Positions 1,121-57,365 of a DNA stretch of 64,000 nt are shown here, one piece after another (the stretch's first letter is position 1; every line of letters begins with the position of its first letter). The notes under the pieces are model-generated. The model was given only the letters and a program-made list of their open reading frames with translations, did no database searches and was not told the DNA's origin. The position numbers and the translations under genes are program-made. Source of the DNA: an uncultured Gemmatimonadota bacterium (GTDB lineage: Bacteria; Gemmatimonadota; Gemmatimonadetes; Palauibacterales; KS3-K002); assembly GCA_964345885.1 (NCBI GenBank), contig CAYFSW010000124.1, positions 4,042 through 68,041 on the forward strand. Reading direction: 5' to 3'.

Positions 1121-1280
1121 GGCGTCGGGTCGGAATTGGGGATTCAGGGGTTCAGGGAGTCAGGGATTCGGGGAGTAGGGAATGGGAACGCCGGCAATCC
1201 GTGGCATCCGTGGTATCGGGGACTTGGGGATTCCCGGAATCCCAGAATCTCCGAATCCCGAACTCTCAACCCCCCGGTTC
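1121..1280. repeat. Intergenic palindromic repeat, family R copy 1 (GGGATTC/GGAATCC-rich)
   Basis: gggaattggggattcaggggttcagggagtcagggattcgggga ... ccgtggcatccgtggtatcgggga ... gattcccggaatcccagaatctccgaatcccg. Shares the CCGTGG(N)ATCCGTGG(N)ATCGGGGA core with the copies at 52170 and 55147. Confidence 0.55.
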
Positions 1281-3229: not shown

Positions 3230-3270
3230 GTCGAGGATGGCGCGAGGCGAAGCCGAGCGTCCGCTCTTAC

Positions 3271-12131: not shown

Positions 12132-12147
12132 ATAGACAGCCGCGCTC

Positions 12148-12940: not shown

Positions 12941-12955
12941 ATGACCCACCGCAGT

Positions 12956-27527: not shown

Positions 27528-27694
27528 TTCAATATCCGATAACCCATACCCACTGACCACGTAGTCAAGGACTGTTCAGCGGCCAGGGCCCGAGTTTCAA
27601 GGCCCGAGTCTCATCGGTGATTGAAACCTGACACTTGATCGCTGAAATCACTTGATACCCGCCCCCTGGATGTCGGATATTGGATATTCAGATC
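27528..27694. mobile_element. MITE-like element, copy E of the TIR family
   Basis: Left end ttcaatatccgataacccatacccactgaccacgtagtcaagg, right end ctggatgtcggatattggatattcagatc. It ends 32 bp upstream of the SDR start codon. Confidence 0.6.
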
Positions 27695-27725
27695 CACACT
27701 GTGGGACTGCTCTTCGGGAGGAATC

Positions 27726-28463: not shown

Positions 28464-28547
28464 TCGCGTCTACGGCTTGGTGGTCTGAGGCGAACTAAGG
28501 CTATAAGTTGGCGATGTACGCTGGCCATCCACTCGGAGGATTCAGCG

Positions 28548-28925: not shown

Positions 28926-29027
28926 TCGGCCTTGAGTTGGTCGCTCCGCTCGGTGCGCACCCGGGGAGGGATACACACGATCGATGGCGGGAGAGCGCCG
29001 CTAAGCGCCCGGTAGACGCGTCCAGGA

Positions 29028-31634: not shown

Positions 31635-31738
31635 GATCTGTCTCTCCGAGTATCCTACTGCGGCAAATACACCGTTACTTGCGTCTTATCTCAATTAGTC
31701 ACGGATTCCCGTACACACGTATTCCCAGTCAGAATACG

Positions 31739-32866: not shown

Positions 32867-33042
32867 AATGCTCCTCCCATACAGGACAACTACTTTCGCT
32901 GGGCGGTGCTGGCCAGCCGGTCAGCCGGCACGGCCACGGAATAGTGCGCCCGCGAGCCGTCACTCGCCAGCCTGGTGGTCTAAGACTCTCCGAGGCTGTA
33001 GTATGGCGATGTACGCTTACCATCCACCCGGAGGATCCAGCG

Positions 33043-33423
33043 ATGAGCGCGAGAGTTTGCCTGAAAGTGGCTGCCGCGCTGATGCTGACGGCCCAGCTAG
33101 GCGGATGTGCCGGCCGCAAGGGCACCGAAAGCGCAGCTGGGCCCCAGTCCCAGGCCGAGGTCACCATCGAGGTCGAGAATCAGAACTTCTACGATGCCAG
33201 GATTTACCTCTTGGTCTACGGCAATCGAACGCGATTGGGGCAGGTCACCGGTAACAGCACCCAAACCTTTTCGTTCGCGGTGCAGCCGGACGACATCCGA
33301 ATCGCGGTCGACTTCATTGGCGGAGCTGGTGGGTTCATCACGGAGTCCATGCCGGTGAGCGCCGGCGATCAGCTCGAGTTGCAGATCCTGCCGGACGCCC
33401 ACCGCCTGCGCTTCAAAGGGTGA
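33043..33423 (+). CDS. Small lipoprotein, paralog 2
   Basis: MSARVCLKVAAALMLTAQLGGCAG lipobox. ATG verified at 33043; the 33-codon upstream extension was rejected. Confidence 0.6.
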   Translation: MSARVCLKVAAALMLTAQLGGCAGRKGTESAAGPQSQAEVTIEVENQNFYDARIYLLVYGNRTRLGQVTGNSTQTFSFAVQPDDIRIAVDFIGGAGGFITESMPVSAGDQLELQILPDAHRLRFKG

Positions 33424-33578
33424 TCGGCTGTACGTCGGTCGCTCCGCTCCGTGCGCATCGGGGACCGTAGCTCTACGGGCAAGTGTGGGGCGCCCGGATA
33501 GCGCCTGGCGCCCCACGAGCTGAACCGCGATCTTGGAAGCAGTTCGTATTCACGCCTGTCGCCGGGGAGGATAGCCCC

Positions 33579-33956
33579 ATGAACGCAACAGTGAAGCTCT
33601 GCGCTGTAGGTGCGTTGACCCTGACGGTGGCAGCCTGCGCCGCTCGCCAGGCGGCCGACGAAGGCGCGGCGGTTGGCGGGACGGGCCGAGAGGTCACGAT
33701 CGAAGTAGAGAATCAGAATTTCTACGACGCCCGGATCTACGTGGTGGAGTATGGCCGCCGCAGGCGCCTGGGAAGCGTTCCGGGCCACGGTACGAGAGTT
33801 TTCCAATTCCGCGTGGATCCGACCGAAGTACGATTCGTCATCGATTTCATTGGAAGTGGCCAGCTTACCACAAATATCAGGAATGTGCGCCCCGGTGACG
33901 AGCTGTTGCTCACCGTGACCGCTACAACCCATCGATTGCGGTATCGCGGCGGCTGA
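33579..33956 (+). CDS. Small lipoprotein, paralog 3
   Basis: MNATVKLCAVGALTLTVAACAA lipobox-like signal, and VTIEVENQNFYDARIY as in paralogs 1 and 2. ATG verified at 33579. Confidence 0.55.
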   Translation: MNATVKLCAVGALTLTVAACAARQAADEGAAVGGTGREVTIEVENQNFYDARIYVVEYGRRRRLGSVPGHGTRVFQFRVDPTEVRFVIDFIGSGQLTTNIRNVRPGDELLLTVTATTHRLRYRGG

Positions 33957-33981
33957 CCGCCGGCGCTGCGGCATGTGGGGG

Positions 33982-35640
33982 TCAGCGGCGCGCTCCGCGA
34001 GCACTGCCGCTCCCGCGCGGGTCCGCGACGCCGATGTACGCCTCGGTCGGTGCATCGAACTCGATCCCGTGGATCCGCGCGAAGTAAGGTGCGGAGGCAC
34101 GAGCTTTGGGAGTGAGGCCGAAACTCGCCAGCTCAGCCATATCCGCCGCCGACCAGGTGGCCGCGCGCCGGCCCTCGATGTAAATCACCTCGGGCGTGGG
34201 GTGGAAGCGCGGTAGTGCCATGGCGTCCGCCAGGCAAAGTTCCTCGTCCACCACACGGCTCACGACCTCGACGATCGCCGAGATGATGCGCCGAGCCCCC
34301 GCAGCGCCCAGCACGTACGCCGGTTCCCCATCCTTCAGCACGATGAGCGGCGACTGCGACGAGAAGGGACGCGCACCCGGGGGCAGCGATCCCAGGTAAC
34401 CCATCGTCGCCGCGTAGACGAACCCCAGACCCCTGGCTGCCACCTTCGAGCCCATCGTCGGTCCCAACGACTGGGTGAGCGCGACCAGGCCGCCGTCCCC
34501 GTCGGCAACCGAGAGGTGCGTCGTATGCGCCGACTCCGCAGCACCGAGCGCGGCGAGCGCGCCGGGCGACATGGCGACCGACTGTGCGGCGCCCGGGTCC
34601 TCCACCTGCTCGGCGCGAGTCGCCGCCCACTCCTTGGAGGCCAGGGTGTACGCCTGCTCGATGACCGTCCCCAGATCCTTGGTGCGATCCTCGAAGCTCA
34701 GCAGTAGGGCCTGCGCGGTGAGCGCCAGCCACTCGGGCGTCCCTGCCCGATCGGTGAGGTTGAAACGCTCTAGGATATGTAGCGCCTCGATCGTCGTGGC
34801 TCCCGAAGCGGGGAGGTAAGTGCCGACCAGTTCGTGGCCCCGATAGCTGCCCCGCACGACCAGCGAGCGGCGTGCCTCGTAGTCCGCCAGGTCGTCCCTG
34901 CGTACGTAGCCGCCACCGCGCTCCATGTCGGCGGCGACGCTGTCGGCGATCCAGCCTTGGTAGAACGCGTCGGCGCCACCCTCGGCGATGGCGCGCAACG
35001 TACGGGCGAGTTCGGGCTGCACAAGTCGTTCGCCCCCGCCATAAATTGAGCCGTCCGGCTTGAGGAAGTATCGGGCGGAACTCTCGAACTCCCGCAGCTG
35101 GTCCGCGACGCCGGCGATTCGCTCGGCCGCCCCGGCAGGCAACGCAAAGCCCCCTTCGGCGAGTGCGATGGCGGGCGCGATGAGTTCCGCCCACGGCCGC
35201 GTGCCGTGGGCGGCGTGGGCCATGGCGAGGGCCGCCACCGTGCCAGGTACCCCGATCGTGGCAAAGCCGTAGAGATCCTCCTCCGCCGCCGGCTCAGCCG
35301 GCGCCCCGGCCGGGACCTCGGTGGTCCCATCGATCCCTGCGTACTCGCCGGCCGCGGTGCGCAGCAGTATCTGGGTGCGGCCGCCGAGCCCCGACATCGA
35401 TGGCTCGACCACGGAGAGTGCGAACGCTGTAGCGACGGCGGCGTCCACCGCATTTCCTCCCGACTCCAACACCTGCACGCCGACATCTGTGGCGAGTGGC
35501 GCGCCGCTGACCACCATGCCGTGGGTTGAGCGGGCGAGCTGGCCGGGTCCGTAGGCGGGATGCTCCGGCGCCTGGGGCTCGCACCCCAGGAACGCTAGGC
35601 CGGCTAGGAGCAGGACGCCGGAGACCACCGACGGTCTCAC
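33982..35640 (-). CDS. ggt: Gamma-glutamyltransferase
   Basis: Lipoprotein signal LLLAGLAFLGCE. TTHLSVADGDGG is the GGT autoprocessing Thr motif, and GSPGGARIIS-like residues appear as GAAGARRIIS. Confidence 0.9.
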   Translation of the reverse strand: MRPSVVSGVLLLAGLAFLGCEPQAPEHPAYGPGQLARSTHGMVVSGAPLATDVGVQVLESGGNAVDAAVATAFALSVVEPSMSGLGGRTQILLRTAAGEYAGIDGTTEVPAGAPAEPAAEEDLYGFATIGVPGTVAALAMAHAAHGTRPWAELIAPAIALAEGGFALPAGAAERIAGVADQLREFESSARYFLKPDGSIYGGGERLVQPELARTLRAIAEGGADAFYQGWIADSVAADMERGGGYVRRDDLADYEARRSLVVRGSYRGHELVGTYLPASGATTIEALHILERFNLTDRAGTPEWLALTAQALLLSFEDRTKDLGTVIEQAYTLASKEWAATRAEQVEDPGAAQSVAMSPGALAALGAAESAHTTHLSVADGDGGLVALTQSLGPTMGSKVAARGLGFVYAATMGYLGSLPPGARPFSSQSPLIVLKDGEPAYVLGAAGARRIISAIVEVVSRVVDEELCLADAMALPRFHPTPEVIYIEGRRAATWSAADMAELASFGLTPKARASAPYFARIHGIEFDAPTEAYIGVADPRGSGSARGARR

Positions 35641-37085
35641 GGCCGCCCTTCGCTGCTGGCGCGTCGAACCGCTTGGCCCGGTGCCACTCCTTGGACAAAC
35701 TCGCCGCGGTCGAGCACGACGGCCCCATTCACCAAGACGTAGTGCACGCCTTCGGAGTACTGCGCCGAATCGAGATAGGTGGCTCGATCGATGATCGTGT
35801 TCGGATCGAACACCGTGATGTCGGCGTAGGCCCCGACGCTCAGCCGGCCCCTGTATCGCATCGAGGGCACCGCCCGCTCCAGCCGCTGGGCGGGCATAAC
35901 CGTGATCTTTCGCAGTGCTTCCATGAGTGTGAGGTGGCCCTCCTCACGCGTCAGCTGGCCCAGCAGGTGGGCGAATGTACCGGCGCCGCGCGGGTGTCCC
36001 AGCCCGTCGACGATTACGCCATCGCTGGCGACCATCACGAAGGGATGCTTCAGCGCCATCAGCATCTCCTGCTTCGGGATGAAGAAGGTGATGATCGTAG
36101 CGCCCTGCTCGCGCCAGTAGTGGAAGGTTTCTTCGTTCAGCCGCTCGCCTGATTCGACAAGCATGATAGAGTCGTAGGTGACACCGCCGAAGCGCTCCTG
36201 CCAGCCTGGATCGTAGAGTGCCGACTCCAAGCGAGTGCTGTTCGCCAGGTACGGGTGGATATCGGCCATGACGTCGATCCCGTTCCGGCGCGCGCCCTCG
36301 ATCATCTCCAGCGAAACGTCCATCGAGCCGATGGCCGACGAGGCGAGGTGGACGACCTGGGCGCTGGCTCCGGTTATCGCCGCCGCGGCGATGACTTCCT
36401 GCACCGACTGGACGATGGTCTCGGGGAAGACCGAGCCTTTGTACCGCGAGTGGACGTGGGCAGGCACATCGTGTTGTGCGGCCACGTCGAACATGGCGAT
36501 GATCTCCTCGTAGGAAGCGCCGGGTGTGTAGTTGATGCCGAATCCGATCCCCACCGCGCCGGATTCGATGGCCTGAGCGGCGATCTCGCGCATCCGCGCG
36601 AGTTGGGGCCTGCTGGCCGGCGCATAGAGATCCGTAGCGGCCGCCGCCTCGCGGATGTCGGGGTGCCCCACCGTGGTTCCGTAGTTCACCAGCGAGCCTT
36701 CAGCCTGGAAGGCCGCGTACCAGCCCGGGATGTCGACTGGCCCGCCGTGCATGCTCACCACGGTGGTGGCGCCATCCTTGATCTTGTAGCGTTGGGGCTC
36801 CTGATCAGGCCGGATCCTCGCCAGGACGTCCACGAAGCCGGGCGCGACCACCAGGCCCGAGGCATCGATTACCCGATTGGCCGTGACCGGCTCGTTTGTG
36901 ATCGCAACGATCCGATCGCCGCGGATGAGCACGTTCTGCACGCGGTCGGTCCCGCTGGCCGGGTCCACCACCCGGCCGCCGACTACAGCGATGTCTCCTC
37001 TATCCTGGGCGGCTAAAGGGCTCACCCCGCAGATCGAGATCAGCCCTGCCAGGGGGAGGAGCTGACTAAGACGCGTCCTCAGCAT
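35637..37085 (-). CDS. Amidohydrolase (D-aminoacylase / N-acyl-D-amino-acid deacylase-like)
   Basis: Signal peptide. GFVDVLARI (metal-binding HxH position replaced, typical of D-aminoacylase). The C-terminal region ...GAYADITVFDP matches D-aminoacylases. Confidence 0.75.
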   Translation of the reverse strand: MLRTRLSQLLPLAGLISICGVSPLAAQDRGDIAVVGGRVVDPASGTDRVQNVLIRGDRIVAITNEPVTANRVIDASGLVVAPGFVDVLARIRPDQEPQRYKIKDGATTVVSMHGGPVDIPGWYAAFQAEGSLVNYGTTVGHPDIREAAAATDLYAPASRPQLARMREIAAQAIESGAVGIGFGINYTPGASYEEIIAMFDVAAQHDVPAHVHSRYKGSVFPETIVQSVQEVIAAAAITGASAQVVHLASSAIGSMDVSLEMIEGARRNGIDVMADIHPYLANSTRLESALYDPGWQERFGGVTYDSIMLVESGERLNEETFHYWREQGATIITFFIPKQEMLMALKHPFVMVASDGVIVDGLGHPRGAGTFAHLLGQLTREEGHLTLMEALRKITVMPAQRLERAVPSMRYRGRLSVGAYADITVFDPNTIIDRATYLDSAQYSEGVHYVLVNGAVVLDRGEFVQGVAPGQAVRRASSEGRP

Positions 37086-37261
37086 TGTTCTGCTCCTGTC
37101 TGTGTGCGGCTCTGCTCAGTCGATGGGTTGCGACGCAAGTTAGAGTCTGGGCCCGGCCCGTGACCAGGCCGGCCATGTAAAGCCGCGTTGAGCCTGACCA
37201 GGCCTAGCGGTTATCTTGGGAAAACTCGGTCACAATTGGCTCGCTTACCTGGAGCGGCGCT

Positions 37262-37702
37262 ATGCATTTGTGGGCCTGCGCGAGTTCGGTCGGGGCGAGG
37301 ATTCTCGCGGCGGCATTGGTATTCCTTTTCAGTTCGTGCTCTGACTCCACCGGGCCGGACTTGCTGCTGAGCTTCACCGCCGAGCGGTTTCTTAGCCCGG
37401 GGCCGTCGCCGCCGGTGACCGTGGAGGCAGGCGACGGGAGGATCACCGTCCAGGGTACTCTGAGTACGCCCTGCCTGGCCTCGGTGTCCGAGATAGTCGG
37501 CGAGGCGGACCGTAGCGGGTCGGAACTGGAGCTGCGGGTCGGCTGGGTCCCCGCCGGCGACTGCGTGCAGGGGGTCGACGTCTTCTTCTACGAGGCGGTG
37601 CTCGGCAGCTTGAGCGCTGGCGTCTACCGGCTCAGGGTTCTACACGTGCTCACCGGGCACGCGGCCTACGTGGCGCTCGACGAGGACGTACTGGTCGGTT
37701 AG
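37262..37702 (+). CDS. Hypothetical lipoprotein
   Basis: Signal peptide plus lipobox LFSSCSD. No recognised domain. Confidence 0.45.
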   Translation: MHLWACASSVGARILAAALVFLFSSCSDSTGPDLLLSFTAERFLSPGPSPPVTVEAGDGRITVQGTLSTPCLASVSEIVGEADRSGSELELRVGWVPAGDCVQGVDVFFYEAVLGSLSAGVYRLRVLHVLTGHAAYVALDEDVLVG

Positions 37703-37732
37703 GCGCTGCGGTTTCGGAAGGCACAGACGACT

Positions 37733-37761
37733 GTCCCCACCGGGCGAGGCCCGGTGGGGAC
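37733..37761. terminator. Perfect hairpin (12 bp stem, 5 nt loop) between convergent genes
   Basis: gtccccaccggg cgagg cccggtggggac. Confidence 0.6.
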
Positions 37762-37796
37762 AGCTTGTTCCATCCTCCGTCTCGGGTTGGGGGCGA

Positions 37797-39107
37797 CTAC
37801 GGACAGTACGCAGTGCCCCGGACGTTATCATTCACCAGACACTCGCTCTCAGAGATCGGGATGCAGATGGCCCGCGGGTTCTGTGCGGGACCCCAGACGA
37901 TCTCTCCGCCGTAGATGAACTGGACGGCCGGCAGGTAGGTGAGCCCTGCCTCATCCCAGCGCCGCATGTCGAAGAAGCGGCGACCCTCGAGCCAGAGCGT
38001 CAGGTGTCGCTCGCTGTCCAGGGTGATCCAGGCGTCCTGCAGGGTCATCCCCGTCGGATCGATGGGGGTCAGGTTCCAGAACGTCCGCACCTCGTTGATG
38101 CTGGCGATAGCTCCATCTATGCCCGCGGCGCCTGACTGTACCAGTTGCGCCTCCGCCTCGATCAGCCGCATCTCCGTCCCCTTCACCACCGGGATCTCGG
38201 CTCCCAGGTCCTGGTACTTCTCCTGTTGCCAATGCGGAGTCGACCCATCGGCGCCCTGGTCGTGAGCACAACCGGCTCCCGGCTGGGTGCAGTCGGTGTA
38301 TGGCGTCCGCGGATCCTGCGGGACCAAGCTACCCACGTACGTGAGGTACGCAGACATCTCCGGCCGCCGGTGGGTCTCGTCGTAGATCTCGTTGTACTCA
38401 CGCCCTGTGGGGCTGTCGTAGATCGCATTGTGGACGAAGTCGGTGGCCACCAGGCCGGCGTAGAGCACCGCGTTCGTCCAATCCTCCAGGCCGACGTACG
38501 CCTGGGCGAGACCTCCGTACGCCGCCGTCTCGATGTCCGTGTCACCCGCCTGCTGGGCGTGATCGGCGGCCTCGGTAAAGTGGCTGATGGCCCGCCGGAA
38601 CGCCGAGTCCGGTGCCTGGGCCGGGCCCCCGTCGAACACGGGCGTGCAGAACGCCTCGCCCAGGACCCGGTTGGCGAGGCCGGCGAAGAGGTACGCCCGG
38701 GCGGTCAGCTCGTTGCCCTCGAACTCGTAGCCCTCGATCGCCTGCATCCGCAGAAGCCCGTCCTCTGCCACCCAGCGGGCGCGCGAGACGGTCTCCCACT
38801 CGAAATCAACATAATCGGGGGGTATCAAGCCGACCCTAAACTCCCCCGTGCTGCTGTAACTTCCGCTGCCCGCCATCTCGTCGGACGCCCGGGCGACCAG
38901 GAACCCGATCTCGTCGTACCCCTGAGAGAAGTCCGACGACATACCGACGACCAGCGGCCTGACCGCGCGCTCGGCGTCGAGGTCTTCCTCGAGCACGCGG
39001 CCGGGGTTCTTGACGTCAAAATCACATGCCGCCAGGAGTAGCGCTCCCATGATGAGAGGCCCTACTGTCGCCCTGGCCGGCGCTGAAAAGGATGCTCTCG
39101 TAACCAT
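37797..39107 (-). CDS. RagB/SusD family nutrient-uptake outer membrane lipoprotein
   Basis: Lipoprotein signal LLLAACDF. TPR-like SusD architecture, and it lies directly downstream of a SusC gene. Confidence 0.85.
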   Translation of the reverse strand: MVTRASFSAPARATVGPLIMGALLLAACDFDVKNPGRVLEEDLDAERAVRPLVVGMSSDFSQGYDEIGFLVARASDEMAGSGSYSSTGEFRVGLIPPDYVDFEWETVSRARWVAEDGLLRMQAIEGYEFEGNELTARAYLFAGLANRVLGEAFCTPVFDGGPAQAPDSAFRRAISHFTEAADHAQQAGDTDIETAAYGGLAQAYVGLEDWTNAVLYAGLVATDFVHNAIYDSPTGREYNEIYDETHRRPEMSAYLTYVGSLVPQDPRTPYTDCTQPGAGCAHDQGADGSTPHWQQEKYQDLGAEIPVVKGTEMRLIEAEAQLVQSGAAGIDGAIASINEVRTFWNLTPIDPTGMTLQDAWITLDSERHLTLWLEGRRFFDMRRWDEAGLTYLPAVQFIYGGEIVWGPAQNPRAICIPISESECLVNDNVRGTAYCP

Positions 39108-39123
39108 TAGAGGTATCCCTCCC

Positions 39124-42100
39124 TCAGAAAGTCAACGTCAGGCTGACCAGGAACGACTTCGTCGGCCCCAGAGAGTAGTAGTCGATTCTCGAGAACTCAT
39201 CATTGCTGCCCTCTGTGGGGCCCTGCAAGCTCCCGTCCTCGATGCCCTCCGGGTCCATGGGATAGTCCGTGATCATTAACAGATTACGCGCTGCGAGTCG
39301 CAGCGTCGCCCCGCGGACACCTCCCAGCAAGAAGCGCTCTGGGACGCGGTAGCTGAGCGAGGCCTGACGGAGGCGGAAGAAGTCGGCCGCCAACGTCCAG
39401 GCATCGTAGCGCGGGTTGCTCCTGCAGCGGTACTGCATCAGCGCCGTGATGCCGTCGATCTCACCGTCAATTACTCTGTCACGGATCGACTTGGTGAAAC
39501 CCGGGTCGGTCGCGATGCGCCCCTCGAGATCGACCTCGCACTCCGGCCATTCGCCGCGCCGGACCTGCTGCCGCATCGTGCCGCCCGTCAGGACGTGACC
39601 GCCCTGTCCCTCGCCCAGAACGTCCAGGGTCAGGCGCCGCATCACGGTGATGGACGTGTTGATCCCGTAGCTGAAGGTCGGGTAGGCGGGCCCGAGGTAC
39701 CGCTCCTCAGTCTCCGGGGGTACGCCGACCTCGTTCGGGTTCGTCACCGCGTTGCCCCAGAAGCCGGGCATTGCGTAGCACCGCTTGGGCCGCGATGAAT
39801 CGATGAGGTCGTGCTCATAGTTGCAGCGGCGGATCTCCGGGTTGTAACCAACGCTGCCGCCGAAGGAGATGAGATCGAGCTCGCCGAGATCCGTGGCCTC
39901 GCTCTTGTGGGTCGAGTAGCGGAACCCGACCTCCCAGTCGAGGTTCTCCCAGCGGAGGACTCCGAGGTTCACGAACCACTCGGTGCCAAAGTTATCTACC
40001 TCACCGACGTTTATCAGCTGGGTGCCGATGAACCCGAGCGACGGTATCTGCTGGGTCGGAACCAGGGCATCGGTGGTCGTCTGCCAATAGCTGTTGAAGT
40101 CGAAGCTCACCCGGCCGTCGAAGGCCGAGCCCTCGAAGCCGATCTCCAACTCGTCGGTTTTCTCCGGGCCTAATTCTGCGTTACCAGGGTTGGCCGTCGT
40201 GACCCCAGGCTCGCCTTCGTCTCCGGCGATCTCCTGCCAGACTCGTTGGGAGTCGAACACGCCGGGCGCTTTGCCCGACTGGCCCCACGCCACGCGCAGC
40301 TTGGCCGTCTCCCACCAGTCGGGCCAGAACTCGTGCTCCGAGATCAGGTAGGAGGCGCCCAGCTTCGGGTAGGTCGCCCACCCGAAGTCGTCGCCGAAGG
40401 TGCTGAAGCCATCCCGGCGGACGCCGAGCGTCAGGAAGGCCCTGTCCCTCCAGCCGATCCGCTCCTGCAGGAAGTACCCGCCGCTGGTAACGTCGCGACG
40501 AAACTCGCTCACATCCCTCAGGGCGGCTGAGTCGAGGTCCTTGTCTCCGGGGCCGCCGAAATCGTCGCCGAACCCGTTGATCCTGCGGATCTTCTCGCTG
40601 TAGAGCTGGCCCCCGAACGAGAAGCTGGAAGTGAGCGACTCGCCGATCTCCGCCTGCCAGGTCCCGGCGTAGTCGAGGGTGAGAGTCCCCACCTGGTATG
40701 TGTCGTTCTCACGGTCGCCCAGCGCCACGCGGAAGAACCCGAATGGCCGCTCCTCGGTGTACTCCGTGCGGGAGAAATCGAGGCCGCCGGCGAGCCGATG
40801 AGTGAAGCCCGGCAAGGGCCGCCAGTTAGCGGTGAGTCCGGTGATGAAGTGGTCGGCGTAACTGTTGATCTTCATCTCCAGGGTCTTGCTGTCGTCGTGG
40901 CCGGGGGTGTAGTCGGACTCCCCGCGCCACACGTTCAGCAGGAACCCCTCGGCGTTGTCGCCGTCCGGGATCCACCTAACCTCGCGGCGGGCGTAGGAGT
41001 TGTTGAACTGGATATCCAGCAGATCGCTCGGTTGGAAGGTGAAGTTTCCCCGCACCGACCAGTCCCGGCTCCGCTGGGGCGCGATCACGCCCTCCTCGCG
41101 AGCCCACTTACCCGACACGAAGTAGCTCATATTCGTCGTGCCGCCGCGTACCGACACGTCATACTTCTGCAGGTGGCCGTTCTGCAGCCAGCTGCCGCCC
41201 TCCGGACAGCCCAGCACGTCGGCAGTGCAGTCGTTGGTGTGCAGGCCGGTCGGGTTGATGTCCTTGTCAGGCCCCACATGGCCCATCCAATTGACGCCCT
41301 GCTCAACGTTCAGGGTCCAGATCGGCCGGCCAGGAGTGCCTCGCTTGGTGAAGATCTGAATGACGCCGCCGCTCGCCTCCGTTCCGTACAGCGTGCTGGC
41401 CGCCGGCCCTTTGACGATCTCCACCCGCTCGATGTCCGCGGGGTTGATGTCGTTGAGCCCTGAGGTCGCCTGATTCGCCTCGTCGGCAGCCGACGGGGCC
41501 GAGCTGTAGATTCGGACCCCGTCGACGTAGACCAGCGGCTGGTTCCCCATCGCGAACGAGTTGATGCCGCGCAGGCGAATCTTGGAGCCAGCGCCCTCCA
41601 TCCCCGACGAGTTCATGACGACGGACCCGGTGGCGCGGCCCTGGAGCACGTCGTGGATGTCAGACACCGGCGCGTCCTCGAGGTCGGCCAGTGTAATCAG
41701 CGAGACGTCGTGCGGTAGCTCGCGCCGTCGGACCTCGGTCGCCATGCCGGTCACCACGATCCCTTCCATCTCGATCGGTCTTTCCCTGAGCTGGAAATCC
41801 AGCGTGGCAGTTGCACCGACCTGGACCGTGACGTCCTGGTTGACAGTGCCGTAGCCGATGAGCGTGGATCGGATTTCGTGCGTGCCGGCCGGCACGGCGT
41901 CCAGGACGTACTCTCCGTTCTCGCGCGTCAGCGTTCCGATTCTGGTGCCCACGACGCTAACGGCGACCGCTGCCAGCGGCGCGCCCGTGACCCTGTTAGT
42001 GACGCGACCCTGAATGCGCCCCGTCTGTGCCTCGACTGGAGCGGCCGCGGTCAGCAATGGGCCGAGGGCGATCGCCGCTCCGAACAGCGACGTCCGGAGC

Positions 42101-42135
42101 TGTCGCGCGAGCCTTAGTGAACCTTTCTTGTTCAT
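39124..42135 (-). CDS. SusC/RagA family TonB-linked outer membrane protein
   Basis: 1003 aa. N-terminal CarbopepD_reg-like domain (IQGRVTNRVTGAPLAAVAVSV) followed by plug and barrel, C-terminal ...LTLTF. Paired with SusD. Confidence 0.9.
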   Translation of the reverse strand: MNKKGSLRLARQLRTSLFGAAIALGPLLTAAAPVEAQTGRIQGRVTNRVTGAPLAAVAVSVVGTRIGTLTRENGEYVLDAVPAGTHEIRSTLIGYGTVNQDVTVQVGATATLDFQLRERPIEMEGIVVTGMATEVRRRELPHDVSLITLADLEDAPVSDIHDVLQGRATGSVVMNSSGMEGAGSKIRLRGINSFAMGNQPLVYVDGVRIYSSAPSAADEANQATSGLNDINPADIERVEIVKGPAASTLYGTEASGGVIQIFTKRGTPGRPIWTLNVEQGVNWMGHVGPDKDINPTGLHTNDCTADVLGCPEGGSWLQNGHLQKYDVSVRGGTTNMSYFVSGKWAREEGVIAPQRSRDWSVRGNFTFQPSDLLDIQFNNSYARREVRWIPDGDNAEGFLLNVWRGESDYTPGHDDSKTLEMKINSYADHFITGLTANWRPLPGFTHRLAGGLDFSRTEYTEERPFGFFRVALGDRENDTYQVGTLTLDYAGTWQAEIGESLTSSFSFGGQLYSEKIRRINGFGDDFGGPGDKDLDSAALRDVSEFRRDVTSGGYFLQERIGWRDRAFLTLGVRRDGFSTFGDDFGWATYPKLGASYLISEHEFWPDWWETAKLRVAWGQSGKAPGVFDSQRVWQEIAGDEGEPGVTTANPGNAELGPEKTDELEIGFEGSAFDGRVSFDFNSYWQTTTDALVPTQQIPSLGFIGTQLINVGEVDNFGTEWFVNLGVLRWENLDWEVGFRYSTHKSEATDLGELDLISFGGSVGYNPEIRRCNYEHDLIDSSRPKRCYAMPGFWGNAVTNPNEVGVPPETEERYLGPAYPTFSYGINTSITVMRRLTLDVLGEGQGGHVLTGGTMRQQVRRGEWPECEVDLEGRIATDPGFTKSIRDRVIDGEIDGITALMQYRCRSNPRYDAWTLAADFFRLRQASLSYRVPERFLLGGVRGATLRLAARNLLMITDYPMDPEGIEDGSLQGPTEGSNDEFSRIDYYSLGPTKSFLVSLTLTF

Positions 42136-42271
42136 AGGCTCCTCCTACGTTAGGACTCAGCCATGCGCGTTCCCGAGTCCGCTGCAGCGATTTCTACCTC
42201 GGGCGATGGAGCGCGCAAGTGAGCCTGTTGGTCCCTATCGGACCCCGCTGCGTGGCCAACGCGCCGGACAA

Positions 42272-42853
42272 CTAAAGGCCGCAACCGCGCCTTACGTCCC
42301 GGCTATCTGACGCGTTGCCCACTCCCCTCTTACTGTATATCAGAAGAACGCCGCCGCTGGCGCCCGTACCGTAAAGGGCGGTCGTCGCAGGGCCGCGTAG
42401 AATCTCGATTCGCGCAACGTCCAGCGGGTCGATGATGTCTAGGTACTCTATCCCGCTACGCAAAGGAAGTCGGATACCATCCACGAACACGAGCGGCTCG
42501 CTGGGACTTACGATGCTGTTGTTGCCGCGCAGCCCGAGGGACGAGGATCCTCGCGACTGCCAGTCGGCCGTGCTGACCAGTAACCCGGGAATTCGGGTCC
42601 GCAGGATATCGAGAAGGGATGCGCCTGAAGAGAATCTGATCAATGTGGCCTCGTCTACCGACTCGCACGTGGGGTCGGAAACGGACTGCTCCAGGGGGGG
42701 CGCTGCGTCGGCTGGGTCAGGTTGCGATTGAGATGGGGTGAGACAGCCGGTCGGGCCTAGGAGAAGGAGTAGAACGCACCCCACACCACTGCCTGTACGG
42801 CGGATCCTGCAGCGGCGGCGATCGTGCCATACGCCCTTGTGTAGCATGGCCAC
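42272..42853 (-). CDS. Stand-alone TonB-receptor plug-domain lipoprotein (or 5' remnant of a truncated receptor gene)
   Basis: Lipobox LLGPTGCL. LVFVDGIRL...IEILRGPATTALYGTGASGGVLLIYSKRG are plug-domain motifs. The ORF stops after 193 aa and no barrel follows. Confidence 0.5.
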   Translation of the reverse strand: MAMLHKGVWHDRRRCRIRRTGSGVGCVLLLLLGPTGCLTPSQSQPDPADAAPPLEQSVSDPTCESVDEATLIRFSSGASLLDILRTRIPGLLVSTADWQSRGSSSLGLRGNNSIVSPSEPLVFVDGIRLPLRSGIEYLDIIDPLDVARIEILRGPATTALYGTGASGGVLLIYSKRGVGNASDSRDVRRGCGL

Positions 42854-43118
42854 CTGCGTGTGTCATGACAGGTCGACTGCCCGACCACACCCGACACCAA
42901 ATGCCCGGGAGGCCCACTGCAGTTGGCTGAACTCCCGGTTTAGTGCCACAAACTCAGTCTATGGTAGGGACTTTCTCACCTTACCGCGTTGGCAGGGGGC
43001 TGTCAAGGAGATCGTGACACTGCGGGGTTTCTTCGGGGCCCAGTCACCACCGAGACATTGGAACTTGGGTCTTGGTCTCACCCAGCGTTGGATATTGGCT
43101 ATTCAGATCCTGTGGCCG

Positions 43119-47792: not shown

Positions 47793-48692
47793 TTAGACCG
47801 ATGAGAAGCTGGCCAGCGCCGCGCCGCGGTCACCTTCTCGCAGCTCCTTCAGCGCCCGGTCGCGCAGCTGTCGCACCCGCTCCCGCGTGATGCCCAGCTT
47901 CTGCCCGATCTCTTCCAGCGTGTGCTCGCGGCCGTCACCGAGACCGTAGTACAGCCTCAGGACCAAGGCGTCGCGCTCTCGGAGTGTGCTCAGCGCATCG
48001 TCGATCTGCTCGCGGAGCAAGCGCTCCTCGACCTCGGCGTGCGCATTGCTCGCCTCCTCGCTCACGAACCGCTCGACCAGGCTCGAGTCCTCGCTGTCGC
48101 CGATCGGCGCATCGAGACGGACCTCGCCGGCGTTCAACGCCTCGAGCATCTCCACCGTCGCCGGGTTCATGTCGAGGTGCCGGGCGATCTCCTCGCTGGT
48201 CGGCTCCCGATCCAGCGTCACCTTGAGCGCCTGCCGCGCCTTCAGGATCTTCGAGAGCTCCGCGGCACGGTTGAGCGGGACCCGCACGGAACGCCCATGG
48301 TGCGCCAGCGCCGACAGGATGGCCTGGCGGATCCACCAGACGGCGTAGCTGATGAACTTCACCCCCTGGTCCGGGTCGAACTTGATCGCCGCCGTCACCA
48401 GACCCAGGTTGCCCTGCTGGATCAGATCGCTGAGCGGCAGCCCGCGACCCTGGTACTTCTTGGCCACCGAGATCACGAAGCGTAGGTTGGCCTTGCAGAG
48501 AGCCTGGATCGCTCTCGAATCCCCCTTCTGAGCACGCCGCGCCAGCCTGATCTCTTCCTCGGGCGTGATCAGCCCGTGCTGGCTGACGTCCTGGAGGTAC
48601 TGATCCAGGGCAGAATCCTCCCCCGCAACCCGGCTCTTCAGAGCCTGGCTGGCACGACGCTTCGCCCTGGCAGAATCACGATCCATGATCAT
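47793..48692 (-). CDS. RNA polymerase sigma-70 family factor (RpoD/RpoS-like, regions 2-4)
   Basis: DLIQQGNLGLVTAAIKFD is region 2.2, YAVWWIRQAI is 2.3/2.4, and the region 4 HTH is TLEEIGQKLGITRERVRQL. Confidence 0.9.
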   Translation of the reverse strand: MIMDRDSARAKRRASQALKSRVAGEDSALDQYLQDVSQHGLITPEEEIRLARRAQKGDSRAIQALCKANLRFVISVAKKYQGRGLPLSDLIQQGNLGLVTAAIKFDPDQGVKFISYAVWWIRQAILSALAHHGRSVRVPLNRAAELSKILKARQALKVTLDREPTSEEIARHLDMNPATVEMLEALNAGEVRLDAPIGDSEDSSLVERFVSEEASNAHAEVEERLLREQIDDALSTLRERDALVLRLYYGLGDGREHTLEEIGQKLGITRERVRQLRDRALKELREGDRGAALASFSSV

Positions 48693-48928
48693 CGCTCTAT
48701 GATTTACCCCTACTCCGATCCTATCTCTAGGCTCTGCTCAATATTAAAGTCCCGGCTGGGAACGCCTGTTCCGCCGGGATCTTGCCATCTGGGCGGCTTT
48801 CCGCCCGAGTGCACCCGGGGTCCGGCAAATAAGACACCTCAGTGGCCATAAAGTTTCAAAGCGGACCCGGGGTGTGGCTAGCCGTGGCCAACCCTCAATT
48901 ATAGGGACCGCGGTCCCGTTGTCAAGGT

Positions 48929-49035
48929 GGGAGTTCGGGGTTCTGGGATTCCACGGATTCCTAATACACCTTCCCGTATTCCCTGATTGCGGATCCCGAA
49001 TTCCGAATCCCCGAATCCCCGCATCCCTCAATCCC
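48929..49035. repeat. Intergenic palindromic repeat, family R copy 2 (half-length)
   Basis: gggattccacggattcctaatacacc ... cccgaattccgaatccccgaatcccc. The ccacggattcctaataca block is shared with the copy at 52359-52388. Confidence 0.55.
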
Positions 49036-50073
49036 CTAGTTCCACCGGAAGATCTTCAGCGCCGCCCCGAAGCTCACTACCCCCCAGGCGGCGGCCAGCG
49101 CCAGCCGTCCCAGGTTGGCGGTCAGCGGGTCGCCGTCGATCATCACGGAGCGGAGGGCGTCGAGCAGCGGGGTCAGCGGCAGGGCCTGGATGAATGGTTG
49201 CAGCGGCTCTGGGAATCTGGCGTAAGAGAAGAAGACGCCGGAAAAGATCCACATGGGGAGCATGACGAAGTTCATGATCCCGGATACACCCTCGACGGTT
49301 TGGGCGCGGCTGGCGGTGAGCAGTCCTAGGCCGGCGAAGGTCGTGGCGCCGACCACGGCCACGCTAAAGAGGTCGAGGATCGAGCCGTGGACCCGGACGT
49401 CGAAGACGAGCCATCCGAAGCCGACCAGGGCGGCGACTTCGAGGATCATGAAAGCGAAGCGGGAGAGGCCGAAGGAGAGCAGGTAGTGGCTCTTGCGCAT
49501 CGGGGTGGCGAGCAGCCGTTTGAGCAACTTCTTGCGCCGGGCCTGCACGATGTTGAAACCGATCCCCCACATCCCGCTGCCCATCAGGTTGAGGCCCAGC
49601 AAACCGGGGATGAGGAAGTCGATGTAGCGGGAGCCCGGCTCGGTGAGGTGCCGTTCGCGCGCCTGGCGCGGGTCGGCGCGGCCGGCGGCTCGTTGCACCG
49701 CGTCATCCACTACGCGCCGGGCCAGCAGGCCCTCGCTGCGCGTGGGATCGAACACGTAGGTGACCGAGTCGCCCGGTACGACGACCAGGGTGAGCTTGCC
49801 GCTGCGCAGCTCGTTCTGCGCCTCTGCGGGCGGCATGAGTAGCGCGCGGAGTTCGGGGAAGCTATCGAGCGACACCGCCAGCTCGGCCGCGCCGGGACCG
49901 TCCTGTACCGCGATGCGCAGAGACTCTGCCGGGCGGTTGCGGAAGGCGATCCCGAGGCCGAGGGCAAGCAGGACGGGGAAGATGAAGACCCAGAAAATCG
50001 CCTCGGGTTCGCGGATGAACTCGAGGATCCGGGCCCGGGTCAATTCCCACAGCGGGTGCGAGGGGTCACTCAT
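49036..50073 (-). CDS. ABC-2 type transporter permease
   Basis: Six TM helices. ABC-2 fold. Overlaps the ATPase gene. Confidence 0.8.
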   Translation of the reverse strand: MSDPSHPLWELTRARILEFIREPEAIFWVFIFPVLLALGLGIAFRNRPAESLRIAVQDGPGAAELAVSLDSFPELRALLMPPAEAQNELRSGKLTLVVVPGDSVTYVFDPTRSEGLLARRVVDDAVQRAAGRADPRQARERHLTEPGSRYIDFLIPGLLGLNLMGSGMWGIGFNIVQARRKKLLKRLLATPMRKSHYLLSFGLSRFAFMILEVAALVGFGWLVFDVRVHGSILDLFSVAVVGATTFAGLGLLTASRAQTVEGVSGIMNFVMLPMWIFSGVFFSYARFPEPLQPFIQALPLTPLLDALRSVMIDGDPLTANLGRLALAAAWGVVSFGAALKIFRWN

Positions 50074-52169: not shown

Positions 52170-52442
52170 TGGGAATTCAGGAATCGGGGAATCGGGAATT
52201 CGCGAATTCGGGAACCCGGTATTGGAACCGGGGAAGGGGAACGTAGAAACCGTGGAATCCGTGGAGTCCGTGGTATCCGGGATTCGGGGAAGTTGTATGG
52301 GAATCCGTTGAGTCCGGGAATCGATGCGGTAGGTAGTGTCCTTCCCATCCTCCCCTATCCCACGGACTCCACGGATTCCTAATACAACTCCCAAACTCCC
52401 TGAATCCGACTCCCGAATTGCGAATCCTTGAATCCCCGAAAC
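52170..52442. repeat. Intergenic palindromic repeat, family R copy 3 (longest)
   Basis: gggaattcaggaatcggggaatcgggaattcgcgaattcggg ... gaaaccgtggaatccgtggagtccgtggtatccgggattcgggga ... cccacggactccacggattcctaatacaac ... cccgaattgcgaatccttgaatccccgaa. Internal arms are reverse complements of each other. Confidence 0.6.
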
Positions 52443-52680
52443 CCAACGAGGATCTTATCCCCCGGCCGGGTGTAACCAATCTTACGCAGGGCCTTGGGGT
52501 GAACCCACAGGCCCTATCGTCCGAGTCCCCCCCGCGCATCGGGTCTGCGGCCCTGGAAATGGGCCGTCGCGGCCGACCCGGCAATCCAGGCAGTGCTGAA
52601 GGGAACGTAGTCCCATGGACAAGGCGGCGCCTAAGTGGCTAGTTTGTCAGCCCCTGGAGGGTTCACGGGGTGGAGGAGTG

Positions 52681-55073: not shown

Positions 55074-55146
55074 GCCGATAACCTCCGGTCACAAACGAGC
55101 ACCCGTTAAGATACAGTACTCCGGGCAAAGCTGCCCGGGTGAGGAA

Positions 55147-55327
55147 AATTCGGGAATCGGGGACGCTGGGACTTTGGGAGGTTGGGAAGGTGAATAGGAA
55201 ACCGTGGCATCCGTGGAATCCGTGGAATCGGGGAATCGCGAATCCCCGATTCCACGGATGCCACGGTTTCTACAATCCCCTTCCCCCACTCCCAGACTCC
55301 CGGAGTCCCCGATTCCCGAACTCCCAT
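55147..55327. repeat. Intergenic palindromic repeat, family R copy 4
   Basis: gaaaccgtggcatccgtggaatccgtggaatcggggaatcgcgaatccccgattccacggatgccacggtttc is a near-perfect ~75 bp palindrome, flanked by cgggaatcgggga and ggagtccccgattcccg. Confidence 0.6.
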
Positions 55328-55333
55328 CTAACA

Positions 55334-57049
55334 TCACCAAACCGGCGGCTCGTAGCGGATCGGCCGGTACTCGGGGAACCACATCGCGTTGGCGATCCGC
55401 TCCTCGAGATTGTCCAGAACTTCTTCCTCTGTGTGACCTTCCTCGACGGCCCGTCGGACGACGGCGCAGGCCACGGCGTACGAGCATTCACGGATCCGCG
55501 GCAGTTGCGGGTACACGGCCTCCTCGGCTAGGTCTGCCTCGGTAACTACGTCGGCCAACGCCTTGGCGGCCGCCAGGAACATCCCGTCGGTCACTCGTCT
55601 CACCTTACCAACCCAGACACCGAGGCCAACGCCCGGGAAGATGAACGCGTTGTTGCCTTGCCCGATGCGGTAGCGCGCGCCGTTGAACTCCACCGGGTCG
55701 AATGGACTTCCCGTCGCCACGATCGCCCGTCCGGCGGACCACCGTATGGCCTGCTCGGCGGTGCATTCGCTCTTGCTGGTCGGATTGGAGAGCGGGAAGA
55801 TCATCGGCCGCTCGATGAACTCGGCCATCGCTCTTACCACCGGCTCGGTGAACATTCCCGGGGTGCCCGACGTCCCGATCAGGATGGTCGGCTTCGCCCC
55901 CAGGACCGTTTCCTCGAGCGTGACCCGGGACCGGTCCTCACACTCGTAGCCCGCGAGCTCCGCCACATCCCGGGCATAGGTCGCCTTAAAATCTTCCAGC
56001 CCCTCCCGGGCCTTGGTGACCAGACCCCGGCTGTCGACCGTCCAGATCCGTTTGCGCGCCTCCTCCAGGCTGAGCCCCTCTTCCTGCAGCGCCGAGACCA
56101 GGAGGTCGGAGATCCCCTGGGCCGACGCCCCTGCCCCGGCGAACAGGATCCGCTGGTCCTTCATCGCCTGACCGGTGATCCGCAGGCCGCTGAAGACGCC
56201 CGCCACGACGACACCGGCCGTCCCTTGGATATCGTCGTTGAAGGTGCAGAGCCTGTCGCGGAATCGCTTCAGCTGGAAGATCGCGTTGCCCTTGAGGAAG
56301 TCTTCCCACTGCAGCAGCGCCTCAGGGTAGACCTTCTGGACGGCCGCCACGAACTTGTCGACGAAATCCTGATAATCCTGGCCGCGGATGCGTTTCTGCC
56401 GCAGCCCTACGTAGAGAGGATCGTTCAGCCGGTCCTCGTTGTCCGTGCCGACGTCCAGCATGATCGGCAGCGTGAGATGCGGCGGAATGCCCGCGCACAG
56501 CGTATAGAGACACAGCTTGCCGATCGGGATCCCCATTCCGCCGGCGCCCTGGTCGCCCAGCCCCAAGATCCTTTCACCGTCTGTCACCACGATGACAGCC
56601 GGGGGGCGCGGGTGGTTCGCCAGCACTGCTTCGATCTCGTTTCGTTGCTCGTAGCTGATGTACAGCCCTCGGGCCCGCCGCCAGATATGCGAGAAGTTCT
56701 GGCAGGCCTCCCCGACCACCGGCGTGTACACGATGGGCATCATCTCGTCGATGTGCTCGTGGACCAGCCGGAAGAAGAGGGTCTCGTTCCGATCCTGCAG
56801 ACTGGCCAGATGAATAAAGCGCTCGAGGTTCGTGGTCTTCGCCTCGTAGTTCTCGTATACGCGGTTGAGCTGCTCCTCGATCGGGAAGACCGCAGGTGGT
56901 ACGAGCCCCGCGATTCCCAGTGCCTTCCGCTCCTCGGCGGTGAACGCCGTGCCCTTGTTGGTAAACGGATTGAGGAGGACCGGCCGGCCCGTATGGTGGA
57001 CCGCCAGGTACTCCTCACCCGTTCGCGGATCTGTTTTGACAGACCACAT
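55334..57049 (-). CDS. NAD(P)-dependent malic enzyme
   Basis: The N-terminal NPFTNKGTAFTAEER motif is diagnostic of malic enzymes. 571 aa from ATG 57047-57049. Confidence 0.9.
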   Translation of the reverse strand: MWSVKTDPRTGEEYLAVHHTGRPVLLNPFTNKGTAFTAEERKALGIAGLVPPAVFPIEEQLNRVYENYEAKTTNLERFIHLASLQDRNETLFFRLVHEHIDEMMPIVYTPVVGEACQNFSHIWRRARGLYISYEQRNEIEAVLANHPRPPAVIVVTDGERILGLGDQGAGGMGIPIGKLCLYTLCAGIPPHLTLPIMLDVGTDNEDRLNDPLYVGLRQKRIRGQDYQDFVDKFVAAVQKVYPEALLQWEDFLKGNAIFQLKRFRDRLCTFNDDIQGTAGVVVAGVFSGLRITGQAMKDQRILFAGAGASAQGISDLLVSALQEEGLSLEEARKRIWTVDSRGLVTKAREGLEDFKATYARDVAELAGYECEDRSRVTLEETVLGAKPTILIGTSGTPGMFTEPVVRAMAEFIERPMIFPLSNPTSKSECTAEQAIRWSAGRAIVATGSPFDPVEFNGARYRIGQGNNAFIFPGVGLGVWVGKVRRVTDGMFLAAAKALADVVTEADLAEEAVYPQLPRIRECSYAVACAVVRRAVEEGHTEEEVLDNLEERIANAMWFPEYRPIRYEPPVW

Positions 57050-57294
57050 GTCCTCCTCCTGTATGCTGGCCGCCTCGCCACACAGGCCGGCGGCCGCGAG
57101 AATCAAGTCTGCAATGGACGGCCGGTCCCGACCGGCGGCCCAGCTTGTCTTACTTTGTCCCAGGACGTCGTTATCGGCGTTTGGGAGGCAGAGTCAAAAA
57201 AACGTAGAGCGCAAGAAGCGTTCCCCGGCTGGGGCGGCCGCCAGCCGTCCTCGCGCTAGGGGAGTGATAGGAATATACGTCGGCTGAACATCGC

Positions 57295-57341
57295 ACATCG
57301 AACGTCGAACATTGAGTGGGTCAACGTTCGTTGTTCGATGT
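57295..57341. promoter_or_regulatory. Large imperfect palindrome (21 bp arms, 5 bp spacer) built from TCGAACG units
   Basis: acatcgaacgtcgaacattga gtggg tcaacgttcgttgttcgatgt, with arms 19/21 complementary and more CGTTCGA repeats to 57359. It lies 3' of oadB and 5' of the malic enzyme gene. Confidence 0.4.
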
Positions 57342-57365
57342 CCGACGTTCGACGTTCGGTCGCGC

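Follow-up and report, generated by a model that had tools for sequence, protein, structure and literature searches.

We describe here a dispersed family of long palindromic repeats, called family 2, in a 64,000-nt stretch of DNA from an uncultured Gemmatimonadota bacterium; this whole 64-kb stretch is referred to as the window. Family 2 is a real, well-defined dispersed non-coding repeat family of a Gemmatimonadales genome, and its copies sit either in the stretch that separates a stop codon from the following promoter or in the space between two divergent promoters. In kind it belongs with the GGGAATC/GGGANTN repeats of Xanthomonas, its closest known counterpart, while its 8-nt period and its nested 9-mer module are new. 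We interpret the element as a simple sequence repeat (SSR) in the form of a unit-built quasi-palindrome, which would be driven by slippage and transcribed as a 3'-untranslated-region (3'-UTR) or intercistronic hairpin acting on the end of the upstream message. We put the probability of this interpretation at about one half.

An earlier note on this DNA had listed four palindromic copies, always located between genes. All four were found at those places, and all are intergenic both in a gene map drawn from the GC content of third codon positions (GC3) and in independent annotations. The proposed bounds also stand, except that copy 1 ends at about 1265, since positions 1266-1280 are the stop codon and C-terminus of a radical-SAM gene. 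Table 1 gives the anatomy of each copy. The common plan is a concentric quasi-palindrome, with G-tract units GGGAWTCN of about 8 nt outside, 9-nt units CCGTGGNAT inside, then a short centre and the mirror image. On either strand the 5' arm shows tracts of three to four G about every 8 nt (GGGAATCG, GGGGATTC, GGGAGTCA and similar) followed by two to three 9-nt units CCGTGG-A/C-AT, and the 3' arm carries CCACGG and C-tract units complementary to these. Within the units it is the G tracts that are conserved, with variable bases in between. Tandem Repeats Finder reports a period of 8 nt in the outer arms and 9 nt in the inner arms; likewise, the spacing from one G or C tract to the next has its mode at 8 nt (15 cases), with minor classes at 7 nt (9) and 9 nt (5). 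In copy 4 the arms are 87 nt long with 71% complementarity and no spacer between them.

The unit sequences are far too frequent in the copies for a chance pattern. In the window there are 6 occurrences of the two-unit core CCGTGGNNTCCGTGGNNTC, all of them within copies 1, 3 and 4, whereas 100 dinucleotide shuffles give an expectation of 0.00. The pattern GGG[AG][AT]TC occurs 71 times compared with 43.2 +/- 6.9 in the shuffles, and 20 of these 71 occurrences fall inside the 751 nt (1.2%) spanned by the four copies. No further family-2 clusters were found in the window, and therefore four is the right copy count there. A core and its inverse had been proposed as common to all copies. The forward core is indeed shared by copies 1, 3 and 4, but copy 2 lacks it, and the "inverse" motif ccacggattcctaataca is common to copies 2 and 3 only (90% over 29 nt). 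Segments that do not belong to the units are thus shared between copies, D18 (90% over 29 nt) being an example. No unique terminal sequence is common to the copies, and their ends fade into degenerate units.

Table 1. Family-2 copies and other features of the window (positions counted from the first base of the window).
Feature	Positions	Strand	Description
Copy 1	1121..1265	none	Degenerate; left G-tract 8-mer array of about 9 tracts, 1120-1186; two 9-mers from 1199 and 1208; short central palindrome GGGGATTCCCGGAATCCC; right C-tract array 1228-1265; right-hand CCACGG units absent
Copy 2	48929..49036	none	Right-half copy without forward core; three left G-tract units; one CCACGG unit (48951); shared segment GGATTCCACGGATTCCTAATACA; right C-tract 8-mer array 48995-49036
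Copy 3	52170..52444	none	Longest element; left outer array 52171-52240; three left 9-mers from 52250, 52259 and 52268; centre of about 80 nt with its own pairing, 52280-52358; two right 9-mers from 52360 and 52369; right outer array 52380-52444
Copy 4	55147..55327	none	Complete element; left outer G-tract 8-mer array about 55149-55198; three left 9-mers CCGTGG(C/A)AT 55202-55229; central mini-palindrome GGGGAATCGCGAATCCCC 55230-55247; right 9-mers 55248-55269 (CCACGG at 55252 and 55261); outer C-tract array 55270-55327
Polymorphic unit of copy 4	55202..55210	none	One 9-nt unit CCGTGGCAT, missing in the 99.4%-identical strain L001
Sigma-70 consensus promoter	48898..48925	minus	Perfect 12/12 TTGACA-16-TATAAT, for sigma-factor gene 47793-48692
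Family 1, CAATATC/GGATATT-type 7-mers	3039-3240, 11935-12135, 12744-12945, 27529-27695	none	
Family-1 copy with open reading frame	21807-22376	plus (open reading frame)	Arms 21807-21894 and 22288-22376; open reading frame 21878-22267; PF05635 gene between arms
Hairpin, 7-nt units CGGTAGC/GATCACC	2367-2466		
Hairpin, 7-nt units GAACGTC/GACGTTC	57280-57365		

The open reading frames (ORFs) that can be drawn through the repeats had been regarded as artefacts, and this view is confirmed. Their GC3 is 0.51-0.67 compared with 0.82-0.84 in the real flanking genes, an 8-nt period is unable to encode a repeated peptide, and the translation of the spurious copy-4 ORF has no homologues in a set of 5.8 billion proteins. 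A coding-region reading was rejected on these grounds. The independent annotations of the near-identical strain L001 and of L259, a sequence that covers 9.3 kb to the left of the window, contain no gene calls inside the copies.

The repeats are not assembly artefacts either. The window is 99.4% identical to contig WWAP01000157.1 (GCA_011771825.1) and 99.98% identical to the Logan assembly of run ERR2564001. The same copies are found in the NCBI metagenome-assembled genome (MAG) and in the independent Logan assembly and are identical except for one 9-nt unit, so that this explanation was rejected as well. In another independent assembly (L003, about 672-917, corresponding to about 55075-55213 of the window) a run of N lies inside copy 4, from which it follows that such palindromes can break or gap short-read assemblies. 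The named homologues of the ferredoxin and four-helix-bundle proteins of the window come from Gemmatimonadales and Gemmatimonadetes MAGs.

That the family is dispersed is further supported by copies outside the window. Two more are located in the 9.3 kb of L259, giving six copies in the roughly 73 kb of genome over which copies were counted. The first, c5, is an 80-nt hairpin made entirely of 8-mers that occupies the whole Ku-to-LigD spacer, and the second, c6, is a half copy with both unit types that extends to the stop codon of the next gene. Ku and LigD form a non-homologous end joining gene pair (L259 12644-16098), and the hairpin fills its 80-nt intercistronic spacer. A full composite copy exists in another Gemmatimonadota MAG (L072, 1279-1516), placed between an apparent plus-strand stop codon and a GC-rich terminator hairpin that it directly adjoins. 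Convergent G-rich and C-rich arms are seen in copies 3 and 4, in c5 and in the L072 copy. In a sister species (L245), a shorter hairpin of 8-mer units lies over the radical-SAM stop codon.

Searches further afield gave few relatives. A scan of genome contigs with a 15-base pattern returned matches that are mostly due to chance; among the matches listed, the L072 copy is the only true relative, and L041, L046 and L083 contain inverted 9-mer arrays only. A scan of metagenomes for three 9-mer units found many arrays, none of which is a composite relative by BLAST. These arrays are an observation in their own right. L041, L046, L083, L132, L150, L168, L197, L232, L236 and L240 (also L169 and L124) are unrelated contigs carrying inverted arrays of about three 9-mers around a spacer of 25-267 nt. 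In 10 of 10 pairs scored, the polarity is 5'-(CCACGGNNN)n...(NNNCCGTGG)n-3', opposite to that of the window family, and the inverted pairs CCACGG...CCGTGG are thus a different arrangement. L169, L240 and L124 have common extended flanks (aaaaacaaaaacg/cgtttttgtttt), and no Rfam families were found in the spacers of the arrays. BLAST of copy 4 against plasmids gave no match. A literature search on repeats in Gemmatimonadetes turned up nothing relevant, while one with the bare motif GGGAATC was swamped by primer sequences.

We now turn to the position of the copies relative to genes. Copies 1, 2 and 4 each follow a minus-strand gene (radical SAM/SPASM, ABC-2 permease and malic enzyme, respectively) and begin 0, 0 and 7 nt past its stop codon; all three are farther from the next start codon than from the upstream stop. 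Copy 1 directly adjoins its TGA stop (1266-1268), and 53 nt separate its far end from the start of TatA (1068). Copy 2 exactly spans the gap between two signals: its last base overlaps the permease stop (TAG, 49036-49038), and at the opposite end it touches the -35 box of the sigma-factor promoter. Copy 4 begins beyond the malic-enzyme TGA (55334-55336), and between its end and the Fer4 start (55073) there are 74 nt. By our rough estimate, the chance of such stop-side placement of the co-directional copies is below 0.001. The TTGACA of the sigma-factor promoter is also present in the orthologous spacers of three relatives (L247, L249 and L251), 21-148 nt after the stop and without the repeat.

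Placement of this kind is known from Xanthomonas, where G-rich SSRs of the type GGGAATC/GGGANTN form 183-186 arrays per genome, 89-93% of them intergenic (Rehm et al. 2015, PLoS One, PMC4692102). The mean distance of those arrays from the 5' ORF is 28 nt, overlap with the stop codon is frequent, and few of them are found between divergent genes; 70-75 per genome occur as convergent inverted pairs that can form stem-loops (PMC4692102). Their unit number is variable, they are not associated with insertion sequence (IS) elements, and their function is unresolved (PMC4692102). Oligonucleotides of the repeat form G-quadruplexes (G4) in vitro, transcript starts and stops are commoner at G4-capable than at control repeats, 83% of the sites are retained between two species, and a counterpart repeat, GGGGA(C/T)T, exists in Nostoc (PMC4692102).

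Family 2 resembles these repeats in several respects. The outer arms contain tandem arrays of GGGAATC, GGGATTC and GGGAGTC; the elements are intergenic with convergent inverted arms, lie seldom between divergent genes and are placed near or over a stop codon (copies 1, 2 and 4, c5, c6 and the L245 hairpin); unit number varies between related genomes, here by one 9-nt indel that is a single event; and there is G4 potential without a link to IS elements. On the other hand, the dominant period is 8 nt here and 7 nt there, so that the family is not heptameric, and the in-phase 8-mer GGGAATCGGGGAATC does not appear in the Xanthomonas tables. The arms of family 2 are nearly contiguous and form hairpins of 80-280 nt, whereas the Xanthomonas pairs consist of two arrays of about 28 nt separated by 40-50 nt. 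The nested 9-nt CCGTGGNAT module is peculiar to family 2, and CCGTGG is found nowhere in the Xanthomonas repeat tables. Finally, the phylum is different, and site retention looks lower, with 0 of 3 sites occupied in three to five relatives compared with 83%.

Based on the proximity to stop codons, the intercistronic copy between Ku and LigD and the association of the Xanthomonas repeats with transcript ends, we infer that the copies of family 2 act as 3' structures of co-transcribed messages; in addition, the spacers with family-2 hairpins (e.g. those of copies 1 and 2) show no other visible terminator-like hairpin. A copy would be co-transcribed with the upstream gene, giving the message a long hairpin of double-stranded RNA immediately past its stop codon. 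Such a hairpin could be a barrier to 3'-to-5' exonucleases, a processing site of the RNase III type, or both. In this way it may determine where the upstream message ends and how stable that message is, and keep it independent of the next transcription unit. Any effect should be modulatory and dispensable, since the corresponding sites of related genomes lack the element.

This role differs from that of an intrinsic (Rho-independent) terminator, which had also been suggested for the repeats. A consensus terminator scan found no terminator-like site inside copies 2, 3 or 4, a short U run (UUUU) follows copy 4 only, and copy 3 lies between divergent genes; a canonical terminator role is therefore not supported.

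The capacity of the copies to form strong hairpins, another earlier proposal, is clear for two of the four. The RNA fold of copy 4 has a minimum free energy of -133.1 kcal/mol (z = -12.7), and none of 200 shuffles was as good; copy 3 folds with z = -5.7 to -6.3. The hairpins of copies 1 and 2 are weak on the transcribed strand. For copy 1, z is -3.8 on the plus strand. Rfam 15 has no matches at the gathering threshold in the whole window. Permissive settings bring up only plant MIR2118, whose 27.6-34 bits fall far below its gathering score of 85 and represent the generic signal of a long hairpin; no known RNA family is therefore recognised.

Several results speak against a role at the end of the upstream message. 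On the minus strand, which is the transcribed one, shuffled sequences do as well as copies 1 and 2 (z = -0.2 and -1.9, respectively). For copies 3 and 4 the two strands are equivalent in folding and similar in their number of G-U pairs, and thus no G-U bias marks a functional RNA strand; this test for strand asymmetry gave no RNA-level signal in either copy. We account for this by the symmetry being a property at the DNA level, without a signature of selection on one RNA strand. RNAalifold on six copies gave no conserved consensus fold (-3.9 kcal/mol, a meaningless value). Since the copies differ by whole units, the arms cannot be registered, and the alignment for covariation that had been proposed was uninformative, so that no conclusion is drawn from it. 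Copy 3, with FKBP (start 52079, minus) and PP2C (start 52615, plus) diverging on either side of it, cannot be a 3' UTR. It should also be said that co-transcription and an RNA 3'-end effect are, in this organism, our deduction from position and analogy, that absence at orthologous sites fits neutrality equally well as a modulatory role, and that no transposase, target-site duplication or defined termini were seen which would explain the spread of the unit types between loci.

The question of neutrality is best discussed together with the evolution of the copies. It is demonstrated in part that replication slippage adds or removes whole units and that copies decay to half copies. Between the 99.4%-identical strains the sole difference within copies is the deletion of CCGTGGCAT, a clean one-unit indel and a single event. 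Copy 1 and the neighbouring hairpins are invariant between the compared assemblies, and no insertion polymorphism was seen among three near-identical assemblies. In a graded series of relatives, the gene order from malic enzyme to sigma factor is kept, with Fer4 protein identity falling from 94% to 77%. No family-2 element is present at the three orthologous spacers in L247, L249 and L251, or in the malic-to-Fer4 spacer of L243 and L252. With the orthologous sites of five related genomes lacking the element, the copies are recent, lineage-specific and dispensable at any given site. The closest relative, L243, has a malic-to-Fer4 spacer of 112 nt in which there is only a 12-nt palindrome, CGGGAATTCCCG (about 3968-3979). 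It corresponds to one outermost unit pair of copy 4 and may be either a seed of palindrome growth or a collapsed stump. In about 60 kb of three more distant relatives no long local inverted repeats were found, compared with about 11 unit-built hairpins in the 64-kb window.

The same spacer can also hold something else. In the sister species L246, the malic-to-Fer4 spacer is occupied by a different, 495-nt hairpin with direct and inverted units of about 41 nt, which indicates that the same sites host different hairpin families in different lineages. The 495-nt hairpin lies at L246 3375-3869, and the OAD-to-malic spacer of that genome contains a family-1-like element (1273-1658).

These observations allow a different explanation, which is the main rival to a message-end hairpin and which we consider possible, if less probable. 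The repeats would be functionless by-products of slippage of 7-9-nt units, combined with template switching between the arms (quasi-palindrome correction), and would accumulate where selection is weakest, from the stop codon to the next promoter, with the hairpin as a side effect. The empty orthologous sites of the relatives, the different unit-built hairpin at the same site in L246, the half and degenerate copies, the unit indel between strains and the lack of strand bias are all as expected from such a process. The same is true of copy 2 exactly filling the gap between stop codon and -35 box, and of several unrelated unit sequences with the same architecture in one genome. However, local generation leaves unexplained why the same units, together with non-unit segments, recur at at least six loci and in L072. 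The strong bias toward the stop-codon side, with the chance estimate given above, is also difficult to reconcile with it, and the equivalents in Xanthomonas persist at 83% of sites when two species are compared and show an association with transcript ends. We retain the transcribed 3'-UTR or intercistronic hairpin as our interpretation.

Other hairpins of the window are relevant to how such elements spread. Nearly half of the intergenic spacers of at least 80 nt contain a long hairpin of short tandem units, the unit sequences being unrelated (Table 1). The hairpin of GAACGTC/GACGTTC units is kept at the orthologous OAD-to-malic site of L243 (1901-1987), where the units and their number are different and the long stem is preserved. 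Family 1 shares no sequence with family 2. One of its copies encloses in its loop a gene of PF05635, a "23S rRNA intervening-sequence / four-helix-bundle" protein, and four family-1 hairpins without an ORF lie elsewhere in the window. The layout with the PF05635 gene inside the hairpin is orthologous in the sister species (L253, L256 and L257), with arms that are 92% complementary and 499 nt apart. The ORF-less copies at 12744-12945 and 27529-27695 are missing from the spacers of the sister species (L256 1039-1137 and 15574-15704), and the termini of family 1 are sharp (TTCAATATCC...GGATATTGAA). From the sharp termini and the absence at sister-species sites, family 1 looks like a discrete insertion element; a target-site duplication of these two copies is not callable because the flanks have diverged.

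By analogy, family 2 could be an old miniature inverted-repeat transposable element (MITE), whose arms would be terminal inverted repeats composed of repeated binding units for a transposase, the enzyme being supplied in trans from another part of the genome. We consider this unlikely. No transposase or REP-associated tyrosine transposase (RAYT) was present among the ORFs of the window and flanks that were tested. The sharing of non-unit segments such as D18 among dispersed copies, the palindromic nature of the whole element, its lineage-specific presence or absence at orthologous sites and the precedent of family 1 in the same window, with its sharp termini, ORF-bearing copy and missing ORF-less copies, are all compatible with transposition. 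A 100-300-nt, largely palindromic, lineage-specific intergenic sequence capable of forming an RNA hairpin is also what the Correia, ERIC and RUP elements are. In those MITEs, however, the terminal inverted repeats are well defined, target-site duplications occur and a consensus can be recognised. The family-2 copies differ mainly in unit number and not by point divergence from a master copy, and have no unique terminal sequence. No duplicated flank was seen at the four copies, and the empty site of L243 is too diverged to align. The lack of insertion polymorphism among the near-identical assemblies and the absence of IS association of the Xanthomonas analogues likewise do not favour mobilisation.

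The G tracts suggest a further possibility. The tracts of three to four G might form a G4 (in the displaced strand or in RNA) or an i-motif, or the element might be recognised by a protein or a methylase, with the GANTC cluster affecting transcription of the neighbours. The G tracts are the most conserved positions of the units, and oligonucleotides of the Xanthomonas repeat, whose unit GGGANTC also embeds GANTC, form G4 in vitro. GANTC, a motif of the CcrM/HinfI type, has 4-14 sites per copy in copies 1-4, c5, c6 and the L072 copy, or 45 per kb inside compared with 3.5 per kb outside, but this enrichment is a consequence of the unit sequence itself and does not count as a separate line of evidence. 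No GANTC methyltransferase came to light, and no search was aimed at one. G4-type motifs are scarcer in the window than expected (8 against 14.5 +/- 3.4), yet copies 1, 2 and 4 together contain 4 of the 8; copy 3 has no canonical G4 motif. When both arms are present the hairpin is the minimum-free-energy structure, and in folding with G4 allowed, a G4 was never part of it. Moreover, the remaining hairpin families of this genome, which occupy comparable positions, contain no G tracts and no GANTC sites. We therefore regard a G4, i-motif or methylase element as very unlikely, and keep to the hairpin.

Comparison with other known repeats sets family 2 further apart. The copies had been likened to repetitive extragenic palindromic (REP) sequences and bacterial interspersed mosaic elements (BIMEs). 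As with REP/BIME and REPIN sequences of Enterobacteria and Pseudomonas, these are abundant imperfect palindromes in intergenic or intercistronic DNA, often in operons and just past stop codons, and transcribed REP hairpins can stabilise upstream mRNA in E. coli. A REP, however, is a single palindrome of 20-40 nt with a conserved head motif, whereas family 2 consists of arrays of 8-9-nt units without unique ends or a shared head motif. No RAYT or IS200/IS605-like Y1 transposase was found in the 20 window ORFs scanned or in the gene calls of L001 and L259, and the likeness does not hold. The short tandemly repeated repetitive (STRR) sequences of cyanobacteria are 7-nt tandem units dispersed in the intergenic DNA of one lineage, sometimes as inverted arrays or in hairpins. 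Family 2 differs from these heptamers in unit sequence, period and phylum, and its concentric two-module architecture is undescribed in STRR sequences. The 23S rRNA intervening sequences with PF05635 genes, a long stem with or without an ORF in the loop, have the layout of family 1 and not that of family 2, which has no ORF-bearing copy and lies outside rRNA. A CRISPR array was rejected, for the units are 8-9 nt long, contiguous and arranged in inverted arms, as opposed to repeats of 24-40 nt with unique spacers.

Some other features of the window are reported here for completeness. A segment of about 14.6 kb (about 28464-43118) lies between the SDR and M14 peptidase genes; in L253, L256 and L257 these two genes are adjacent and the segment is absent. 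It holds a lower-GC MFS/spermidine-synthase fusion gene (29028-31634) and two duplicated stretches that are 79% identical (28475-28965 and 32970-33463). GATC occurs 524 times in the window compared with 209 in the shuffles, an over-representation of about 2.5-fold, and a GvpL/GvpF gas-vesicle gene is located at 8110-8808.

A broader and decidedly speculative picture, which we think rather improbable as a whole, would have this lineage possess an active, sequence-independent way to make and spread unit-built hairpins. At least four unrelated unit families share one architecture and take up nearly half of the larger intergenic spacers, and one of them has PF05635 in its loop, with ORF-less derivatives at new sites. 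In this picture family 2 would be the G-rich branch, whose GANTC-dense arms would mark transcript boundaries, and Xanthomonas and Nostoc would each have evolved the GGGANTC logic on their own. If this were true, the hairpins would be structured intergenic elements of one class that extends across phyla and has its own mechanism, and not junk microsatellites.

At a practical level, recognising family-2 repeats, with their spurious ORFs and assembly breaks, would improve the annotation of Gemmatimonadota MAGs. The finding of a GGGANTC unit beside stop codons in three phyla (Gammaproteobacteria, Cyanobacteria and Gemmatimonadota) argues against pure coincidence. A second system makes the unresolved question of the Xanthomonas repeats testable, and the composite 8-mer/9-mer architecture separates the hairpin explanation from the G-tract explanation. 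If these elements are more than tolerated junk, they would represent a widespread and barely studied bacterial way to shape message ends and insulate neighbouring genes, and they would be elements built by microsatellite dynamics and not by transposition.

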